DNA of 64,000 bases from a bacterium (GTDB lineage: Bacteria > Patescibacteriota > Gracilibacteria > UBA4473), in NCBI GenBank assembly GCA_009995455.1, contig JAACPJ010000005.1, positions 8,048-72,047 of the forward strand, given 5' to 3'. Of this stretch, positions 4,378 through 10,529 are shown piece by piece (position 1 is the stretch's first letter; each line of letters opens with the position of its first letter). The notes under the pieces were generated by a model that worked only from the letters and a program-made list of their open reading frames with translations, had not been told where the DNA came from and searched no databases. The position numbers and the translations under genes were made by a program.

Positions 4378-5640
4378 TTATTTAAGTAAATCTTTCAGTT
4401 TGTCTTCATCTAATTTTGGCCCAATACCGGCGAAGCGGAAGTTTTCGGGTTTGAGTAATTCTTTGGCGAGTTTGTTTACGTCTTCAAGTTTTACGGCTCG
4501 TACCTTTTCTTTCCAGTCTTCATAAGTTTCTACACTGCCATAAAGCAGCACGTTTTTAGCATATTCGTGGGCTACGTCTTCTGTGTCTTCGGTGCTAAGG
4601 TCTGTTTTCCCAACAATATAATTAATGGCTTTTTCGCACTCTAATTGTGAAATCCCTTTTTCTGAAATTTCATCATATTCATGACGGATCGCTTCGACCG
4701 CTTTCAGAACTTCACTTACTTTAACGCCCGCTCGAGTCGTCATTAAGCCCGTATCAGAATATTCATCCACATTGGTTCTAATTGAGTAACACAAACCTTG
4801 GGTTTCTCGTACCCGTTGAAACATGCGCGAGCTCATATTCCCTCCTAAAGCCACTCCAAGCACCTTTAAAGCTGGAAATAAGGGGTCGGTTTCGGCTGGT
4901 GTTTGGACGCCAAAAGATAGATGATATTGCTCGGTTTTTTTAACGCGAAGTTTGATCTTGTCGGTCGCAAAACTTGCCTCAAATTTAGTTGGTGGAATTC
5001 CCCGTGGTTTGTCGCTTACTGGGAACATTTTTTCCATTTTATCGAGCGTCGTTTTATCTACCGCTCCAGCGCAAACGATAATCATGTTATCGGCGGTATA
5101 TTGAGATTCTTTATAATCTACAAAAGCTTCACGTGTTATGTTTTTAATCACTTCAGCGGTCCCAATTTGATCCCATCCGAGTGGTTGATCACCAAAGACT
5201 AAGCGCTCAAAATCCCAACTAATTTGATACATCGGTGCGTCTTGATACATGGCCATTTCTTCCAAAATAACGCCGCGCTCCTTTTCAATTTCTTGTGCCG
5301 GAAAAGTCGCTTCAATTAACATATCAGATAACACATCAAGTGATGTATCTAAATTTTCTTTGCCGGATTTTACATAATAGCCAGCATATTCTTTGCCCGT
5401 AAAAGCATTAAATTCGCCACCAAAACTATCAACCGCTTCGCTGACTTCTATTGGTGTTTTGTACTTCTTAGCGCCTTTAAAGAACATGTGTTCTAGAAAA
5501 TGTGAGAGCCCTGTGTTTTCTTTGCTTTCGTAGCGTGAGCCCGCACCAACGAGCACAAGGGTTGTGACAACGTTGGTTCCAGGCATTGAAATAGCCTGCA
5601 GTCTCAGTCCGGATTTGGTAGTTCTTTCAAAAAGTTTCAT
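4378..5640 (-). CDS. M16 family zinc metallopeptidase
   Basis: Inverted zincin motif HFLEHMFFKG, NAFTGKE, GGNMSSRMFQRVRETQGLCY. Confidence 0.92.
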   Translation of the reverse strand: MKLFERTTKSGLRLQAISMPGTNVVTTLVLVGAGSRYESKENTGLSHFLEHMFFKGAKKYKTPIEVSEAVDSFGGEFNAFTGKEYAGYYVKSGKENLDTSLDVLSDMLIEATFPAQEIEKERGVILEEMAMYQDAPMYQISWDFERLVFGDQPLGWDQIGTAEVIKNITREAFVDYKESQYTADNMIIVCAGAVDKTTLDKMEKMFPVSDKPRGIPPTKFEASFATDKIKLRVKKTEQYHLSFGVQTPAETDPLFPALKVLGVALGGNMSSRMFQRVRETQGLCYSIRTNVDEYSDTGLMTTRAGVKVSEVLKAVEAIRHEYDEISEKGISQLECEKAINYIVGKTDLSTEDTEDVAHEYAKNVLLYGSVETYEDWKEKVRAVKLEDVNKLAKELLKPENFRFAGIGPKLDEDKLKDLLK

Positions 5641-5657
5641 CAAGCTGAGCTTACAAA

Positions 5658-5687
5658 AAAAAACCTAAGTGGCTACTTAGGTTTTTT
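5658..5687. terminator. Intrinsic terminator hairpin downstream of the SLH-inhibitor gene
   Basis: aaaaaacctaagt-ggct-acttaggtttttt perfect stem with A/T tracts on both sides. Confidence 0.75.
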
Positions 5688-5737: not shown

Positions 5738-7420
5738 TTATTGAGCTTTAGTTTTAGAAATAACTTCCACTAATTTGTAGGTATAAGCCCCTGCATCAGC
5801 TGGAACTGGTTCTGGTCTATTAAATCTTTCAATTTTTAGTTCGTAATTATAACCGGCTTCAAATTCGAATCCTTCAATTTGATCGTACCAATTTAGGCCA
5901 TCAACCACCAAACATTCCATTGGTCCAACCCCCATACAATCTCTGGTTTGTGGTGCGACGTTAACGACCATGATTTCACCGCTTGAAATTGCCGCTTGAG
6001 CGCCACCTTCAACTTCGTACTTAACGACCACGTTATTTTTTGTAGTAGCGTTAATTCGTCCTTGAATAAAATCTCTTGTCGTTGGTTGTGTTCTTCCATC
6101 TTTCTCAATGACCCGGAAAGGGACATTATTAATTTCAGCGAGTTCGATAGCTTCTTCAACCGTTAAGCCAATAAAATCTGGCTCCATAGGAACCACTTCC
6201 ATCATTTCTTCTCCGCCGCCTTCAACTTCGTAATCAACGACAAAGTTATTTTCAACGATTGCGTTGATTCGTCCCATTCTAAAATCTTCAGTCGTAGGTT
6301 GCATTTGACCGTCAATCATCACCACTCGGAAAGGAATTTCATTGATGTCAGCTAATTCCATCGCTTGTTCAACCGTCAGCCCAATGTAATCAGGAGATAC
6401 CGGCATGATTTCAAGTACTTCTTCTTCACCGCCTTCAACTTCGTAATCAACTACAATGTCGCCTTCAACGCTCGCGTTGATTCGACCTGGTCGGTAATCC
6501 ATTGTGATTGGCAAAAATTCACCATCTCTCATAGTAACTCTGAATGGAACCCCGTTTGTTTCGGCTAGTTCCATAGCTTGTTCCACACTTAAACCTACGT
6601 AATCAGGAGTTATAGGCATTACTTCAATAATTTCTTCTTCTGAGCCTTCAACGTTGTAATCAACCACAATGTCATTTTCAACCGTAGCGTTAATTCGGCC
6701 AGGTCGGTAATCCATAGTGGCTGGCAAAGGTTGCCCGTCCATCATGGTTACTCTAAACGGCACTCCATAAATAGCCGCTAATGTTTGCGCTTGTTCAACG
6801 TTTAAACCAATATATGGCATCTCTGTTTGTGTCGTAGTATCTTCTGCAGTAAGCGTGTTAATCATCATTTGCATTTCAGTAACGGTGAGAACGTCACTTG
6901 GTTGAATATCTTCACGTGGTGCTGCACCTAAACGACTTAACGTTTGAATGTACCCCCCATACCAAGTTGGGTGCATTTCTTTCGTCATTGGAAGCTCAAA
7001 AGCCAGAGTGGCAATTTTTGCGGCTTCAGCGTAAGTAATTTCTTGTTCTGGCTTAAAAGTGCCATCTGGGTTTCCCCCTACAATGTTTCGGCATGAAGCC
7101 ACTTGCAAAGCATTTCCATAAGAAGCCGACCAGTCAACGTCAGCGTAGTTGTAGGCCATTCGGCATTGCATGCTTACACTTTCGGCTGCCTCCATAATTT
7201 TTTGTAAAAAATCAGCTCTGGTAACAGCGGGCATTTTGGTACAGTAAGTTTCTTCATACCATTCCATAAAACTTCCCCCTAACTCGTTACATTCCATTTT
7301 GGTGTTGGCTTCTAAAAATTGAGTGCCTTCCATAAAAGAAAGCGCATTGGCAGAGGGGGCATGGAATAAAACTCCCATAGCCGTTAAGACTAAACCGTAA
7401 GTAGTAATGTTGGTTTTCAT
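5738..7420 (-). CDS. Secreted SLH-domain protein with four tandem I78/potato-I protease-inhibitor-like domains and a C-terminal DUF4377-like domain
   Basis: Signal peptide; SLH motif (IVGGNPDGTFKPEQEITYAEAAKI); four 71-aa repeats with T-x-D-[YF]-x-x-GRIN; C-terminal VAPQTRDCMGVGPMECL...IEGFEFEAGYNYEL. Confidence 0.75.
   Translation of the reverse strand: MKTNITTYGLVLTAMGVLFHAPSANALSFMEGTQFLEANTKMECNELGGSFMEWYEETYCTKMPAVTRADFLQKIMEAAESVSMQCRMAYNYADVDWSASYGNALQVASCRNIVGGNPDGTFKPEQEITYAEAAKIATLAFELPMTKEMHPTWYGGYIQTLSRLGAAPREDIQPSDVLTVTEMQMMINTLTAEDTTTQTEMPYIGLNVEQAQTLAAIYGVPFRVTMMDGQPLPATMDYRPGRINATVENDIVVDYNVEGSEEEIIEVMPITPDYVGLSVEQAMELAETNGVPFRVTMRDGEFLPITMDYRPGRINASVEGDIVVDYEVEGGEEEVLEIMPVSPDYIGLTVEQAMELADINEIPFRVVMIDGQMQPTTEDFRMGRINAIVENNFVVDYEVEGGGEEMMEVVPMEPDFIGLTVEEAIELAEINNVPFRVIEKDGRTQPTTRDFIQGRINATTKNNVVVKYEVEGGAQAAISSGEIMVVNVAPQTRDCMGVGPMECLVVDGLNWYDQIEGFEFEAGYNYELKIERFNRPEPVPADAGAYTYKLVEVISKTKAQ
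6002..6817 (-). repeat. Four in-frame tandem repeats, period about 213 bp
   Basis: Units [YF][IV]GLxVE[QE]AxxLA...PFRV...GRINA...YxVEG recur every 71 aa. Confidence 0.9.
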
Positions 7421-8621: not shown

Positions 8622-9563
8622 ATGCTAAGAGCTTTACATAATCGTTTAAAAGCCCCAATTGCCGCCTTGCTGTTATTGGCGGTTATTAATATTTGGGTGA
8701 CACCAGTACTGGCACAAAGTCTTTTGCCTATGCCAGTTGAAGGCGCTTATGGAGGGATTCTAGAGAACAATCGAGTGGCTGATATTGTGGAAGAACAGTC
8801 GCAAAGTTATAACTTTTTCGAGAGTATAATTTATGGTGTCTTCAGTGATGAAAATATAAAATCTGCCAATGTGGTTATTGGAGTTGTAGCGATTGTTTAT
8901 TTAGTCGTTATTGGCACGCGTTTTATTTTATCGGAAGGAAAAGAAGAAGAAATTCAGACCGCCCAAAAGCACTTTGGGTTTGTTATTCTCGGTTTGCTGG
9001 TTATTTCGGTGGCTCAAATAGCCGGTTTTACCTTGTTAAATCCGGCTCAAAACGTGAATCCAGATTTCTTTGTGAATAATAATATTCAAGAGGTTTTCTA
9101 TGCGAAAGCGATGCAAATTAAACTCTTTATTCAAATTCTTATTGGGGGTATCGCGCTCCTTTCAATCATCACTTCGGCTTTCCGAATCATGAGTAGTACG
9201 GGTAATGAGGAAGTTATTGGTAAAGAAAAACAATTACTACAAAATTTCTTGTTTGCGACCGTATTAATTTTAGCGGCAGAAGTGATTGTGACGGGGGTGT
9301 TCTATATGCCTGGTGCAAACCGAGAAGGCGCTACAAATCAAGCCGTTAGTATTGGGATTGAGCAAATTATGGGCCTCATAACGGCTTTACTCAGCATCAT
9401 TGCGGCGGCCGCTTTGATTATGGTGATTTTAGCGAGCCTTTATTATGTGATCTCTTTAGGAGACGAAGAAAGAGCTGGACGAGCAAAAAAGCTACTTGTG
9501 GCGAACGTTATTGCCATCGTCATAATTTTCTCCGCCTATACCATTTTACGATTTTTCTTTTAA
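8622..9563 (+). CDS. Protein with three tandem VirB2/TrbC-like (T4SS_pilin) domains
   Basis: Signal peptide plus three hydrophobic hairpins with G[KND]EE-type loops. Confidence 0.7.
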   Translation: MLRALHNRLKAPIAALLLLAVINIWVTPVLAQSLLPMPVEGAYGGILENNRVADIVEEQSQSYNFFESIIYGVFSDENIKSANVVIGVVAIVYLVVIGTRFILSEGKEEEIQTAQKHFGFVILGLLVISVAQIAGFTLLNPAQNVNPDFFVNNNIQEVFYAKAMQIKLFIQILIGGIALLSIITSAFRIMSSTGNEEVIGKEKQLLQNFLFATVLILAAEVIVTGVFYMPGANREGATNQAVSIGIEQIMGLITALLSIIAAAALIMVILASLYYVISLGDEERAGRAKKLLVANVIAIVIIFSAYTILRFFF

Positions 9564-9566
9564 ACA

Positions 9567-10529
9567 ATGCGAAACCTTATTCTTGGTCTCGGGTTTCTGC
9601 TAATGACTTTTTTAAGTGTTGATAGTGTGATGGCTCAATCGGCAGTAACGCCAGATACAAACGCTATTTTTACGACGAATGTTATTTTTAATAAAGATAC
9701 ATTAAGTGATTACACAGGGGTGGAAGATTATGTAAATCCAAATCCAAACAGTGATATCAATCCTGGAACCTTTTTTATGCGTAATATTTTGGTCGTGGCT
9801 ATTCGATTTTTCGATAAGTTACTGGTTCCAATTGCTATATTACTGCTTACTTGGGCGGCAGTGATTATTGTGGTGAGACGGAATGATGAAGAACAATTTA
9901 AAAAAAGATCCTTACAGCTTGTGTGGATGGCGGTTGGTTTTGGGTTGGTAACGGCTTCATTTACCGTGGTTGATAAAATGTTTTTTGGGACGACTGGAGA
10001 AATTTTAAGAAATGATAGTTCTACAAATTTTGGATTGCTGGCTCGATTAGAAATGAATGGCTTGGCTGAATTTATTATGGCTTTCGCCATGGCGATTGGC
10101 GTGCTTTTTGTCATTATCAGTGCTGTAAGACTTATGTTTGCAGGTGAAAATGAAGAACAAATTGATAAAATTAAGCGTCATTTAACCTGGTCTGCGATAG
10201 CCATGCTTCTGCTTTTGATGAGTTATACAATCGTAAACCTGTTCTTCAATTTTGATGAACAAGGACGACTGAAAGGTTTAGATACGGTTGGTATATCAAC
10301 TGAACTTATTACGCTCTCGAATTTCTTCCTAGGCTTTGTGAGCTTCTTTGCGGTGATTGTGCTTATTTACGCTGGTATTCGAATGGTGGCTAATTTTGGT
10401 GATGAAGACGCTGTTAATGGAGCAAAAGACACGGCTAAATATGCCGTAATTGGTTTAGTACTCGCTTTTTCAGCCTTCACGATTATTCGTTTCTTTTTGT
10501 TGCCAGGAGGCGGTGTTTCGGGGGTTTAG
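9567..10529 (+). CDS. Protein with three tandem VirB2/TrbC-like (T4SS_pilin) domains
   Basis: Signal peptide plus three hairpins, e.g. [32 protein letters not shown]. Confidence 0.72.

Follow-up and report, generated by a model that had tools for sequence, protein, structure and literature searches.

Introduction

Canonical inhibitors of the CI-2 type are familiar from textbooks as plant and leech proteins, and multi-headed canonical inhibitors are represented by ovomucoid, other multi-Kazal proteins and the potato type II inhibitors. To our knowledge, the known members of potato inhibitor I are plant and leech proteins of one domain each, the I78 family rests on a single fungal protein, and a tandem array of CI-2-fold heads has not been described. 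The binding loop of potato inhibitor I is held by a network of P2 Thr, an acidic P1' and P6' Arg, with Arg or rarely Trp at P8', and natural members vary in P1, as exemplified by rBTI, which has Arg at this position and binds trypsin (PMC3115953). For bacterial proteins, the literature searched gave no biochemical result on I78-like members; one expression attempt is reported (PMC12620975), which failed. No description of tandem or SLH-linked bacterial inhibitors of the I78/CI-2 type was found in open-access full texts.

Here we report on a gene of a small-genome groundwater bacterium, located in the window (the whole 64,000-nt stretch of DNA that was analysed). Its product carries four tandem repeats behind an N-terminal SLH region. 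We interpret this array as a wall-anchored canonical serine-protease inhibitor of multiple specificity, a reading to which we give a probability of about 0.7.

Results

Domain organization and predicted anchoring

As shown in Table 1, the protein (P0001) consists of a signal-peptide-like N-terminus, an SLH region, four repeats of 71 aa and a DUF4377 tail. This organization had been read from the DNA letters in the first-pass annotation, and both the ORF reading and the Pfam scores bear it out. When read by eye, residues 1-26 begin basic, continue as a hydrophobic segment and close with an A-x-A-like motif, and the N-terminus is conserved between P0001 and its homologue P0002 (56% identical). 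The SLH model (PF00395) scored 42.5 bits on whole P0001 and 46.6 bits on residues 1-200, which passes the cut-off of 20.8 bits. Two SLH stretches were placed in P0001 by Pfam, which detected no third motif. The N-terminal region was also matched in the SLH profile scan of the bacterium's own genome, where, by our count, about 18 open frames carry 38 SLH matches in total. The same genome has a match to the pyruvyl-transferase model (PF04230) at 53.3 bits. The protein had been called S-layer-anchored; the SLH motifs are indeed present, but "wall-anchored" is more exact because these motifs attach proteins to wall polymers.

Table 1. Features of the array gene and its 3' side (positions within the window).
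Feature	Residues	Position	Strand	Basis and remarks
Whole gene, P0001		5738..7420	(-)	Single ORF, 560 aa, stop codon included; predicted secreted multi-domain protein
Signal-peptide-like N-terminus	1-26	7343..7420	(-)	Read from sequence; same pattern in P0002
N-terminal region, SLH motifs and Cys-containing leader segment	27-200	6821..7342	(-)	Pfam SLH
Best Pfam SLH stretch	92-134	7019-7147	(-)	Pfam
Repeat 1, CI-2-like	201-271	6608..6820	(-)	Predicted P1 Met236, codon 6713-6715
Repeat 2, CI-2-like	272-342	6395..6607	(-)	Predicted P1 Met307, codon 6500-6502; copy modelled and docked
Repeat 3, CI-2-like	343-413	6182..6394	(-)	Predicted P1 Glu378, codon 6287-6289
Repeat 4, CI-2-like	414-485	5966..6181	(-)	Predicted P1 Arg449, codon 6074-6076
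DUF4377 domain	488-556	5753..5959	(-)	Pfam and model; all-beta, OB-like small barrel
Terminator-like hairpin and U-run		5655..5687	(-)	Between array gene and downstream M16 peptidase gene

With starts at residues 201/202, 272, 343 and 414, the repeats recur every 71 aa, and Tandem Repeats Finder gave a 213-nt period with a score of 454. Identity to repeat 1 is 69% for repeat 2, 61% for repeat 3 and 47% for repeat 4. No Cys is present in any of the four. The loops of repeats 1 to 4 are PATMDYRPGRIN, PITMDYRPGRIN, PTTEDFRMGRIN and PTTRDFIQGRIN, exactly as they had been quoted at first. All four have P2 Thr, P1' Asp and P6' Arg, and all four have Asn at P8'. Among 1.84 billion proteins, the repeat profile matched at least 1424 representative proteins (clusters at 50% identity) at E≤0.001 and 281 at E≤1e-10; chance is therefore no explanation for the repeats.

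Predicted fold of repeat 2

The AlphaFold2 model of repeat 2, built on a 32-row alignment, had a pLDDT of 94.9. It contains a helix at residues 8-17 and strands at 22-27, 43-48 and 51-57, with the Thr-Met-Asp loop between strands. All Foldseek matches listed at ranks 1-50 against the PDB were CI-2, eglin c, other potato-inhibitor-I proteins or AFUEI. The best was CI-2A (5fbz_D; E 6.9e-3, probability 1.00, TM 0.64/0.61, 27% identity, 62 columns), and no PDB match reached E≤0.001. VIA, run on 48,161 chains, gave Z 6.5 for CI-2A (55 aligned, 2.9 Å), 6.4 for DCHP, 6.3 for eglin c, 5.2 for CMTI-V and 4.2 for AFUEI (I78). For the potato-inhibitor-I structures as a group, Z ran from 6.5 to 5.2, and 55-56 of the 60 residues could be aligned at 26-29% identity. 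The top matches of the two tools together also include rBTI. The CI-2-like fold expected from the loops was recovered, the predicted structure matching CI-2 and eglin c first and AFUEI after them. Judged by this model, the repeats have the CI-2 fold, in which one helix packs against a small sheet and two strands flank the binding loop.

As is expected for a domain of only 60 residues, the fold matches scored modestly, and the top Z of 6.5 lies under VIA's own safe level.

Relation to I78 and potato inhibitor I

As tested with hhalign, 27 domains of the repeat family (A5) and 13 genuine I78 domains (A4, each above the Pfam cut-off) are homologous at a probability of 95.7% and E 9.7e-9 over 48 columns; the alignment pairs T-M-D with T-M-D and GRIN with DRLN. 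An HMM search with Inhibitor_I78 and potato_inhibit had been suggested as a check, and both models stayed under their cut-offs on whole P0001: I78 (PF11720) scored 20.7 bits (cut-off 23.6; 14 bits in the own-genome scan) and potato_inhibit (PF00280) 11.7 bits (cut-off 24.5). Single repeats reached no Pfam cut-off, their I78 scores being at most 14.9 bits. The assignment to I78/potato inhibitor I holds in fold, loop and profile homology but not by the Pfam cut-offs, so P0001 is related but divergent and does not count as a listed member.

Summed I78 scores over the cut-off were obtained for the multi-repeat relatives P0004 (36.2 bits), P0006 (25.2 bits), P0007 (28.0 bits), P0043 (46.9 bits) and P0044 (35.9 bits). 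The last of these has five repeats and a summed potato_inhibit score of 41.7 bits; at E≤0.01, potato_inhibit matched 1 of 32 relatives. The I78 model gave zero matches at E≤0.01 in 4 of 4 genomes that do contain members of the repeat family. No inhibitor was found among the PDB sequence matches of either the repeat profile or the four-repeat segment, and the best of these matches were unrelated (E 0.1 or worse). Most likely, the repeats belong to a Cys-free family related to I78 that Pfam misses domain by domain.

Conservation of the loop and diversity of P1

Conservation was calculated from 319 distinct domain instances in 178 proteins. The entropy was 0.36 bits at Thr35, 0.14 at Asp37 and 0.03 at Arg42, against 2.71 at position 36. 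Arg23 and Asp28 are also invariant and may help to hold the loop. P2 Thr was present in 305 instances, P1' Asp in 314 and P6' Arg in 318, and P8' was Asn in 245 and Thr in 64. Position 36 was occupied by Met (137), Arg (44), Lys (35), Glu (31), Leu (20), Ala (20), Ser (7) and Thr (7). The claim that P1 varies on a conserved scaffold agrees with these counts: within the loop it is the residue after Thr that varies, and this position has the most within-protein difference of the columns tested. The proposed comparison of P1 across homologs showed that 106 of 111 multi-domain proteins have unlike residues at position 36 among their heads, above all of 2000 shuffles (mean 87.8, maximum 99), where the representative proteins are related and such counts are not independent events. 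At 20 other variable columns, 56-94 of the 111 proteins had within-protein differences. On the aligned sequences, the heads of one protein avoid a common P1 across the family.

Met occupied position 36 in 48 of 67 single-domain proteins, and many relatives are lipoproteins of ~100 aa with one domain each. A paralogue in the genome combines one CI-2-like domain (P1 Met) with an MliC lysozyme-inhibitor domain (38.8 bits), and a fusion to MliC occurs in P0005 as well. Weak Pacifastin_I matches were present in 4 of 32 relatives.

The DUF4377 tail

DUF4377 (PF14302) scored 69.6 bits on whole P0001 and 74.9 bits alone (cut-off 25), covering profile positions 2-75 of 75. Its model (pLDDT 92.6) did not clearly resemble any solved structure: Foldseek gave at best E 0.33 (ribosomal proteins), and VIA at best Z 4.8 (generic OB-folds). 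A likeness to potempins was considered and rejected, its Z of 3.0-3.2 lying inside the noise. Short relatives of DUF4377 were searched for and none was found. The domain recurs fused to other hydrolase-inhibitor domains. In Acinetobacter CipA, DUF4377 is reportedly required for binding the serine protease factor I.

Modelled complex with the bacterium's own subtilase

The genome encodes one S8 subtilase and one HtrA/Trypsin_2-type protease. The subtilase carries a signal or anchor segment at its N-terminus and has a region resembling a propeptide; its gene lies on another contig and is not a neighbour of the array gene. The modelled complex of repeat 2 with residues 115-410 of the subtilase scored 0.85, whereas the best control scored 0.01; it passed the docking mark, as did 58 of 80 solved complexes and 2 of 110 mismatched pairs. 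Between docking runs, at least 98% of contacts were the same, and the pLDDT of the partner was 89 or higher. In the model, Met36 contacts the catalytic Ser339, Asn279 and the segments 249-250 and 276-278 of the subtilase, and Thr35 contacts His186 and Asp153. The residue after Thr, earlier taken as P1, is thereby placed at the catalytic Ser/S1 region of the enzyme. Complexes of CI-2 and of eglin with subtilisin have already been solved, so this pass may come from memorized structures and shows likeness only.

Genomic context, distribution and RNA

The hairpin at the 3' side of the gene had a predicted RNA fold of -14.5 kcal/mol with a z of -5.74, and 0 of 200 shuffles were as stable; it was absent from the list of the consensus terminator scan. 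A functional link to the M16 peptidase was considered and dropped because this terminator-like hairpin lies between the two genes. When 26 related loci were compared with 3-kb flanks, the neighbours (M16 peptidase, bPH protein, small membrane protein and pilin) were kept in the closest relative (L021) alone, and no protease target adjoining the gene was found in this comparison. The CI-2-like domain has a patchy distribution, being present in 7 of 43 genomes of the order (this one included) and in 1 of 4 other genomes of the genus. In an RNA-library run, a single contig of 154 nt was identical to positions 6272-6425. It was not counted as transcription because the rest of the gene was uncovered in the same run and DNA carry-over is possible.

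Discussion

The protein would be exported by the Sec route and then held at the cell wall by its N-terminal SLH motifs, which probably fix it to a pyruvylated wall polymer. There it would display four tandem heads of the CI-2/potato-inhibitor-I fold, from a Cys-free branch related to MEROPS I78. Each head is predicted to be a canonical (standard-mechanism) serine-protease inhibitor, whose loop of the pattern P2 Thr - P1 X - P1' Asp - Tyr/Phe - ... - P6' Arg, rigid and exposed, would dock in a substrate-like manner with P1 filling the S1 pocket. The Met heads would be directed to subtilisin-, chymotrypsin- or elastase-like enzymes, the Arg head to trypsin-like enzymes and the Glu head to glutamyl endopeptidases. 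With Met at two of the P1 positions and Glu and Arg at the others, one molecule should cover differing S1 preferences, and the protein may guard surface structures against surrounding proteases. The Arg/Trp at P8' and the Cys pair of I78 are missing, so the loop may be held differently or less rigidly.

The same mechanism could be aimed inward. The target would then be the cell's own secreted subtilase or HtrA-like protease, and the array would serve for self-protection or latency at the surface and not as a shield against foreign proteases. Two possible targets are encoded in the genome and docking with one of them passed, although a pass is expected for any subtilase, like complexes having been solved. 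There is also a precedent in the potempins, surface-anchored inhibitors of the cell's own secreted peptidases (PMC9890683); the array would in this case resemble the outer-membrane-anchored potempins of Tannerella or the Streptomyces subtilisin inhibitor. We consider an endogenous target unlikely, as five heads (Met, Met, Glu and Arg, with a further Met in the paralogue) stand against only two candidate serine proteases, the subtilase gene is on a different contig, and P1 residues that are not shared within proteins fit many targets better than one.

A function other than inhibition, with the CI-2 fold kept in spacer, adhesion or wall-binding modules and the loop binding another ligand, appears improbable. 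A common fold is no proof of function, the fold scores are moderate, and the repeats lack P8' Arg as well as the I78 disulfide, but the residues conserved are those of the canonical loop network while the specificity position varies. The repeated fusion to hydrolase inhibitors (MliC, and weakly Pacifastin_I) argues in the same direction, as do the many single-domain relatives, a single-domain lipoprotein of ~100 aa being the usual form of periplasmic and surface inhibitors. The Pfam PASTA model (PF03793) might be cited for such a function, and for the more specific view that the repeats are PASTA domains binding peptidoglycan fragments, as it scored 37.3 bits summed over P0001 (cut-off 23.2) and PASTA structures are in the VIA list. 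In each repeat its match runs only from position 4 to position 28 or 29 of the 64 in the profile. This N-terminal strand-helix segment of ~25 residues is alike in sequence and partly in structure, and the remainder of the repeat, including the conserved loop, is unmatched. PASTA chains aligned over 39-44 residues at Z 2.2-3.4, about half of the CI-2 scores, and were not among the Foldseek matches listed. A PASTA or other non-inhibitor fold had been named beforehand as the outcome that would speak against inhibition; this comparison placed PASTA clearly lower and left the inhibitor reading standing. According to the models, the repeats are very unlikely to be PASTA domains, and the peptidoglycan-binding view is hardly credible.

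If the array is a wall-anchored inhibitor of multiple specificity, current domain models overlook a large bacterial family of the CI-2 fold (at least 1424 clusters at 50% identity), which uses this fold in wall-tethered multi-headed arrays, with an own P1 for each head, and combines it with lysozyme inhibitors. The family would be a natural library of disulfide-free inhibitor scaffolds with diversified P1, a handle on surface defence in small-genome cells of the Patescibacteria type and a first functional hint for DUF4377. Only tentatively do we extend this to a widespread, so far undescribed modular "anti-hydrolase armour" of bacterial envelopes, in which Cys-free CI-2-like heads with deliberately non-redundant P1 would be shuffled with MliC, a pacifastin-like six-Cys module (a weak resemblance), Kazal and DUF4377. 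DUF4377 would then be a new protease-binding or inhibitory domain, and such arrays might decide whether small-genome bacteria whose surface structures are exposed survive the proteases secreted by hosts, competitors or grazers.

Potato inhibitor I (MEROPS I13: CI-2, eglin c, rBTI, CMTI-V) has the same order of helix, strand, binding loop and strands as the repeats, shares with them P2 Thr, acidic P1' and P6' Arg, and likewise does without disulfides. The two differ at P8', which is Asn or Thr in the repeat family and Arg or Trp in potato inhibitor I, and P0001 is a four-domain, wall-anchored bacterial protein in contrast to the single-domain members of plants and leeches. I78, with the Aspergillus fumigatus elastase inhibitor AFUEI (PDB 3w0d) as type member, has the motif T-x-D-[YF]-x-x-[DG]-R-[LI]-N in common with the repeats, P8' Asn included, and its bacterial members are often small lipoproteins, as are many relatives of the repeat family. 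A Cys near the domain start and a Cys-Gly at the end, a presumed disulfide, are present in 10 of 13 I78 domains and absent from all four repeats, and the repeat 2 model is closer to CI-2 (Z 6.5) than to the AFUEI structure (Z 4.2). The potempins of Tannerella forsythia and the MliC/PliC lysozyme inhibitors are also envelope- or surface-anchored bacterial hydrolase inhibitors (PMC9890683), but their folds and targets are unrelated to the array, and potempin genes adjoin the genes of their target peptidases, unlike the array gene. Ovomucoid, other multi-Kazal proteins and the potato type II inhibitors likewise carry tandem heads with different P1 on one chain and thereby have several specificities; the array differs from them in its CI-2-like fold, its bacterial origin and its anchoring to the wall.

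Architecture of the gene and its product

P0001, the product of the predicted inhibitor-array gene, has the parts that the first-pass annotation had assigned to it (Table). At the N-terminus stands a Sec-signal-like stretch that is kept in the homologue P0002 (56% identity), the SLH and DUF4377 matches exceeded their Pfam cut-offs, and the four 71-aa repeats were found exactly as quoted, with the loops PAT-M-DYRPGRIN, PIT-M-DYRPGRIN, PTT-E-DFRMGRIN and PTT-R-DFIQGRIN. Repeats 2, 3 and 4 share 69%, 61% and 47% identity with repeat 1, and a 213-nt period is visible in the DNA of this region. Between the gene and the M16 peptidase gene downstream of it lies a terminator-like hairpin.

A Cys pair lies at residues 44–60 of P0001. 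It is perhaps related to a short two-Cys module (C-D-E-x-G-N-R-Y ... G-A-T-Y/M-C) of P0002 (about residues 396–460), P0010 (about 45–80) and P0183, which recurs between the repeats and DUF4377 in several relatives.

Table. Positions of the predicted inhibitor-array gene, its domains, its paralogue and its neighbours
Feature	Position	Strand	Basis or content
Whole gene, one 560-aa ORF	window 5738..7420	minus	reading frame
SLH motifs	P0001 27-200, best stretch 92-134	minus	Pfam 46.6 bits, two stretches, cut-off 20.8
Four 71-aa repeats	P0001, starts 201/202, 272, 343, 414	minus	sequence
DUF4377 domain, full-length	P0001 486-560 (last 75 residues)	minus	Pfam 74.9 bits, cut-off 25
Strong hairpin and U-run	3′ of stop codon	minus	-14.5 kcal/mol, z -5.74
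M16 (insulinase-type) peptidase gene, both halves	window 4378..5643	minus	directly downstream of the array
313-aa membrane protein, C-terminal T4SS_pilin (TrbC/VirB2-like)	window 8622..9563	plus	46.2 bits
320-aa membrane protein, C-terminal T4SS_pilin (TrbC/VirB2-like)	window 9567..10529	plus	67.8 bits
Paralogue, 268 aa, lipoprotein-like	L005 1021..1827, own-genome contig C9	minus	one repeat, six-Cys module, MliC

Fold of the repeats

Pfam by itself was ambiguous on the identity of the repeats. PASTA matched P0001 with 37.3 bits, over profile positions 4–28 of 64 only (first strand and helix). The match to I78 takes in the loop region; I78 stayed under its cut-off (20.7 versus 23.6 bits) and potato_inhibit reached 11.7 bits.

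An AlphaFold2 model built on 32 aligned rows (28 short relatives in addition to the four repeats) had a pLDDT of 94.9, with one helix, three main strands and the Thr-Met-Asp segment on a loop between strands. Foldseek against the PDB gave no match for this model at E 0.001; the best match had E 6.9e-3 (probability 1.00, TM 0.64, 27% identity, 62 columns), and all listed rows were CI-2, eglin c, other potato-inhibitor-I proteins or AFUEI. The VIA search of 48,161 chains, which is independent of Foldseek, returned CI-2A (Z 6.5, 55 residues aligned, 2.9 A), the carrot homologue DCHP (Z 6.4, 55 residues), eglin c (Z 6.3, 55), CMTI-V (Z 5.2, 56) and AFUEI (Z 4.2, 53). In absolute terms such scores are moderate, which is to be expected of 60 residues.

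Where Pfam was ambiguous, the predicted structure speaks for a CI-2-like fold. Because the Foldseek and VIA matches were to CI-2 and potato-inhibitor-I proteins, the PASTA or other non-inhibitor fold that the first-pass annotation had named as its refutation was not borne out. We consider the PASTA identity, to which the partial Pfam match points, very improbable; PASTA domains reached a VIA Z of 3.4 or less over 39–44 residues versus 6.5 for CI-2A.

Predicted reactive loop and variable P1

The profile of the four repeats detected 1424 representative proteins at E≤0.001 among 1.84 billion. Loop statistics were drawn from 184 proteins, of which 178 yielded 321 domain instances (319 distinct). 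Entropy over the distinct instances was 0.36 bits at Thr35 (P2), 0.14 at Asp37 (P1′) and 0.03 at Arg42 (P6′) versus 2.71 at position 36, the predicted P1 (M137, R44, K35, E31, L20, A20, S7, T7), in agreement with the earlier claim of a conserved scaffold with a variable P1. Position 44 (P8′) was Asn in 245 and Thr in 64.

The comparison across homologues, which carry up to seventeen repeats, extended this claim: position 36 differs among the domains of one protein in 106 of 111 multi-domain proteins (mean 87.8, maximum 99 in 2000 shuffles), and 20 other variable columns differ in 56–94 of the 111. Met occupies position 36 in 48 of 67 single-domain proteins. With two domains, the patterns often seen are Glu-Met (21), Lys-Met (20) and Arg-Met (14); they probably reflect common ancestry to a large extent, and the events counted are therefore not independent. 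In close relatives, the repeat nearest repeat 3 (Glu) has Arg and that nearest repeat 2 (Met) has Leu.

P0043 (2281 aa) has 15–17 repeats, with predicted P1 L, Y, F, R, K, M, S, A and D, following RMC1_N and RMC1_C domains of eukaryotic type (58 and 132 bits); either the protein is eukaryotic or its gene model is a merger.

Relation to I78

Fourteen I78 matches over the Pfam cut-off were found in 11 of 151 genomes, all in one proteobacterial class, and 13 were aligned (L058 has an in-frame TGA). The domain-only alignment of the repeat family held 27 members from the window and 23 of 26 related loci, leaving out L030 and L039 (in-frame TGA) and L046 (partial match). hhalign matched the two with 95.7% probability (E 9.7e-9, 48 columns), T-M-D falling on T-M-D and GRIN on DRLN, which indicates that the repeat family is homologous to I78 at the profile level. 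The I78 model did not detect the repeat family in any of 4 genomes that encode it. With the scores of their domains summed, relatives with three to seventeen repeats exceed the I78 cut-off, and one multi-repeat relative exceeds that of potato_inhibit.

The TGA codons of the Gracilibacteria-labelled loci L030 (3001-3171) and L039 (3001-3180) fall exactly on family-conserved Gly (G of Y-I-G-L, G of D-G), as expected if TGA is read as Gly (code 25). No such reassignment is called for in the window's genome, and the window reads well with the standard code.

Paralogue and domain fusions

The repeat of the paralogue has the loop VTMDYRVGRVN with predicted P1 Met. Its six-Cys module matches Pacifastin_I weakly (17.1 bits, cut-off 27.9) and its MliC lysozyme-inhibitor domain scored 38.8 bits. 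The six-Cys module, with a C-T-x-x-x-C segment of variable third residue, also occurs in P0007, P0008, P0010, P0109, P0137 and P0150.

Other relatives join the repeat to MliC, META or DUF4377, and ESM Atlas clusters fuse DUF4377 to Kazal or META domains (Kazal_1-DUF4377: 126 members, Kazal_1 in 95%). This recurrence of DUF4377 beside hydrolase inhibitors (Kazal_1, META, MliC, the CI-2-like repeat) hints at a related role. In Acinetobacter CipA, complement inhibition is described as depending on DUF4377, and factor I binding as depending on an intact DUF4377 (PMC9361855).

Distribution and neighbourhood

The genome has 1.32 Mb in 23 contigs (93% complete). Among named relatives of the gene, the nearest carry Peribacteria, Peribacteraceae and Gracilibacteria labels, and the more distant ones Saccharibacteria, Paceibacteria, Parcubacteria, Opitutaceae, Rubritalea, Hellea, Neomegalonema and Pseudomonadales (26 loci). 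Of 43 genomes in the order, 7 have the repeat family, this one counted. Within the genus it occurs in one of four other genomes, and two of these four are single contigs at 99% completeness; given this patchy occurrence, the gene is accessory. Its DNA was found in aquifer and spring metagenomes.

SLH domains bind pyruvylated wall polymer. Such anchoring is frequent here: the genome has 38 SLH matches (about 18 open frames by our count) and a pyruvyl-transferase family match (53.3 bits), which would fit such a system. Among the relatives, the M16 gene adjoins the array only in the closest one, L021, which also keeps one of the two adjoining T4SS_pilin genes next to the array gene.

Possible targets of the predicted inhibitor

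Repeat 2 was folded together with the S8 subtilase that the genome itself encodes (residues 115-410). The model scored 0.85 (best control 0.01). Of 80 solved complexes 58 reached that mark, as did 2 of 110 mismatched pairs; three runs shared at least 98% of contacts, with partner pLDDT of at least 89. The modelled interface comprises inhibitor residues 21-25, 31-39 and 58-59. Met36 contacts the catalytic Ser339, the oxyanion Asn279 and segments 249-250 and 276-278, and Thr35 contacts His186 and Asp153. This canonical, substrate-like pose supports the P1 assignment. Since CI-2/eglin-subtilisin complexes are already solved, the pass may only reflect structures known to the predictor; it is evidence of likeness rather than of binding.

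We put at about 70% the reading of P0001 as a wall-tethered, four-headed standard-mechanism serine protease inhibitor that carries Met, Met, Glu and Arg at P1. A CI-2-like fold is not proof of inhibitor function; its non-inhibitory use is unlikely, though less so than a PASTA identity. The cell's own subtilase, the docked partner, is less favoured as the target of the inhibitor: five heads stand against only two endogenous candidates (one secreted-type S8 subtilase and one HtrA-like protease), and heads of one protein avoid the same P1. For these reasons foreign or mixed foreign and own proteases are favoured.

Comparison with known inhibitors

The P1 of potato-inhibitor-I type inhibitors enters the S1 pocket, as described for Arg45 of rBTI in trypsin, and their loop network is given as P2 Thr, P1′ acidic, P6′ Arg and P8′ Arg/Trp (PMC3115953). 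Three of the four positions are conserved in the repeat family too, whereas P8′ is Asn or Thr. I78 has a Cys...Cys-Gly pair in 10 of 13 genuine domains, which the repeat family lacks, and Pro-Gly before the loop where the repeats have Asp-Gly. The sole reported expression attempt that we found for a bacterial I78 protein failed, according to PMC12620975. In the open-access literature searched, there was no description of bacterial tandem arrays of CI-2/I78-type heads, their SLH anchoring or the MliC fusion. The mechanism is already known in kind; what is new is a Cys-free bacterial family with non-redundant multi-headed arrays, wall anchoring and modular fusions.
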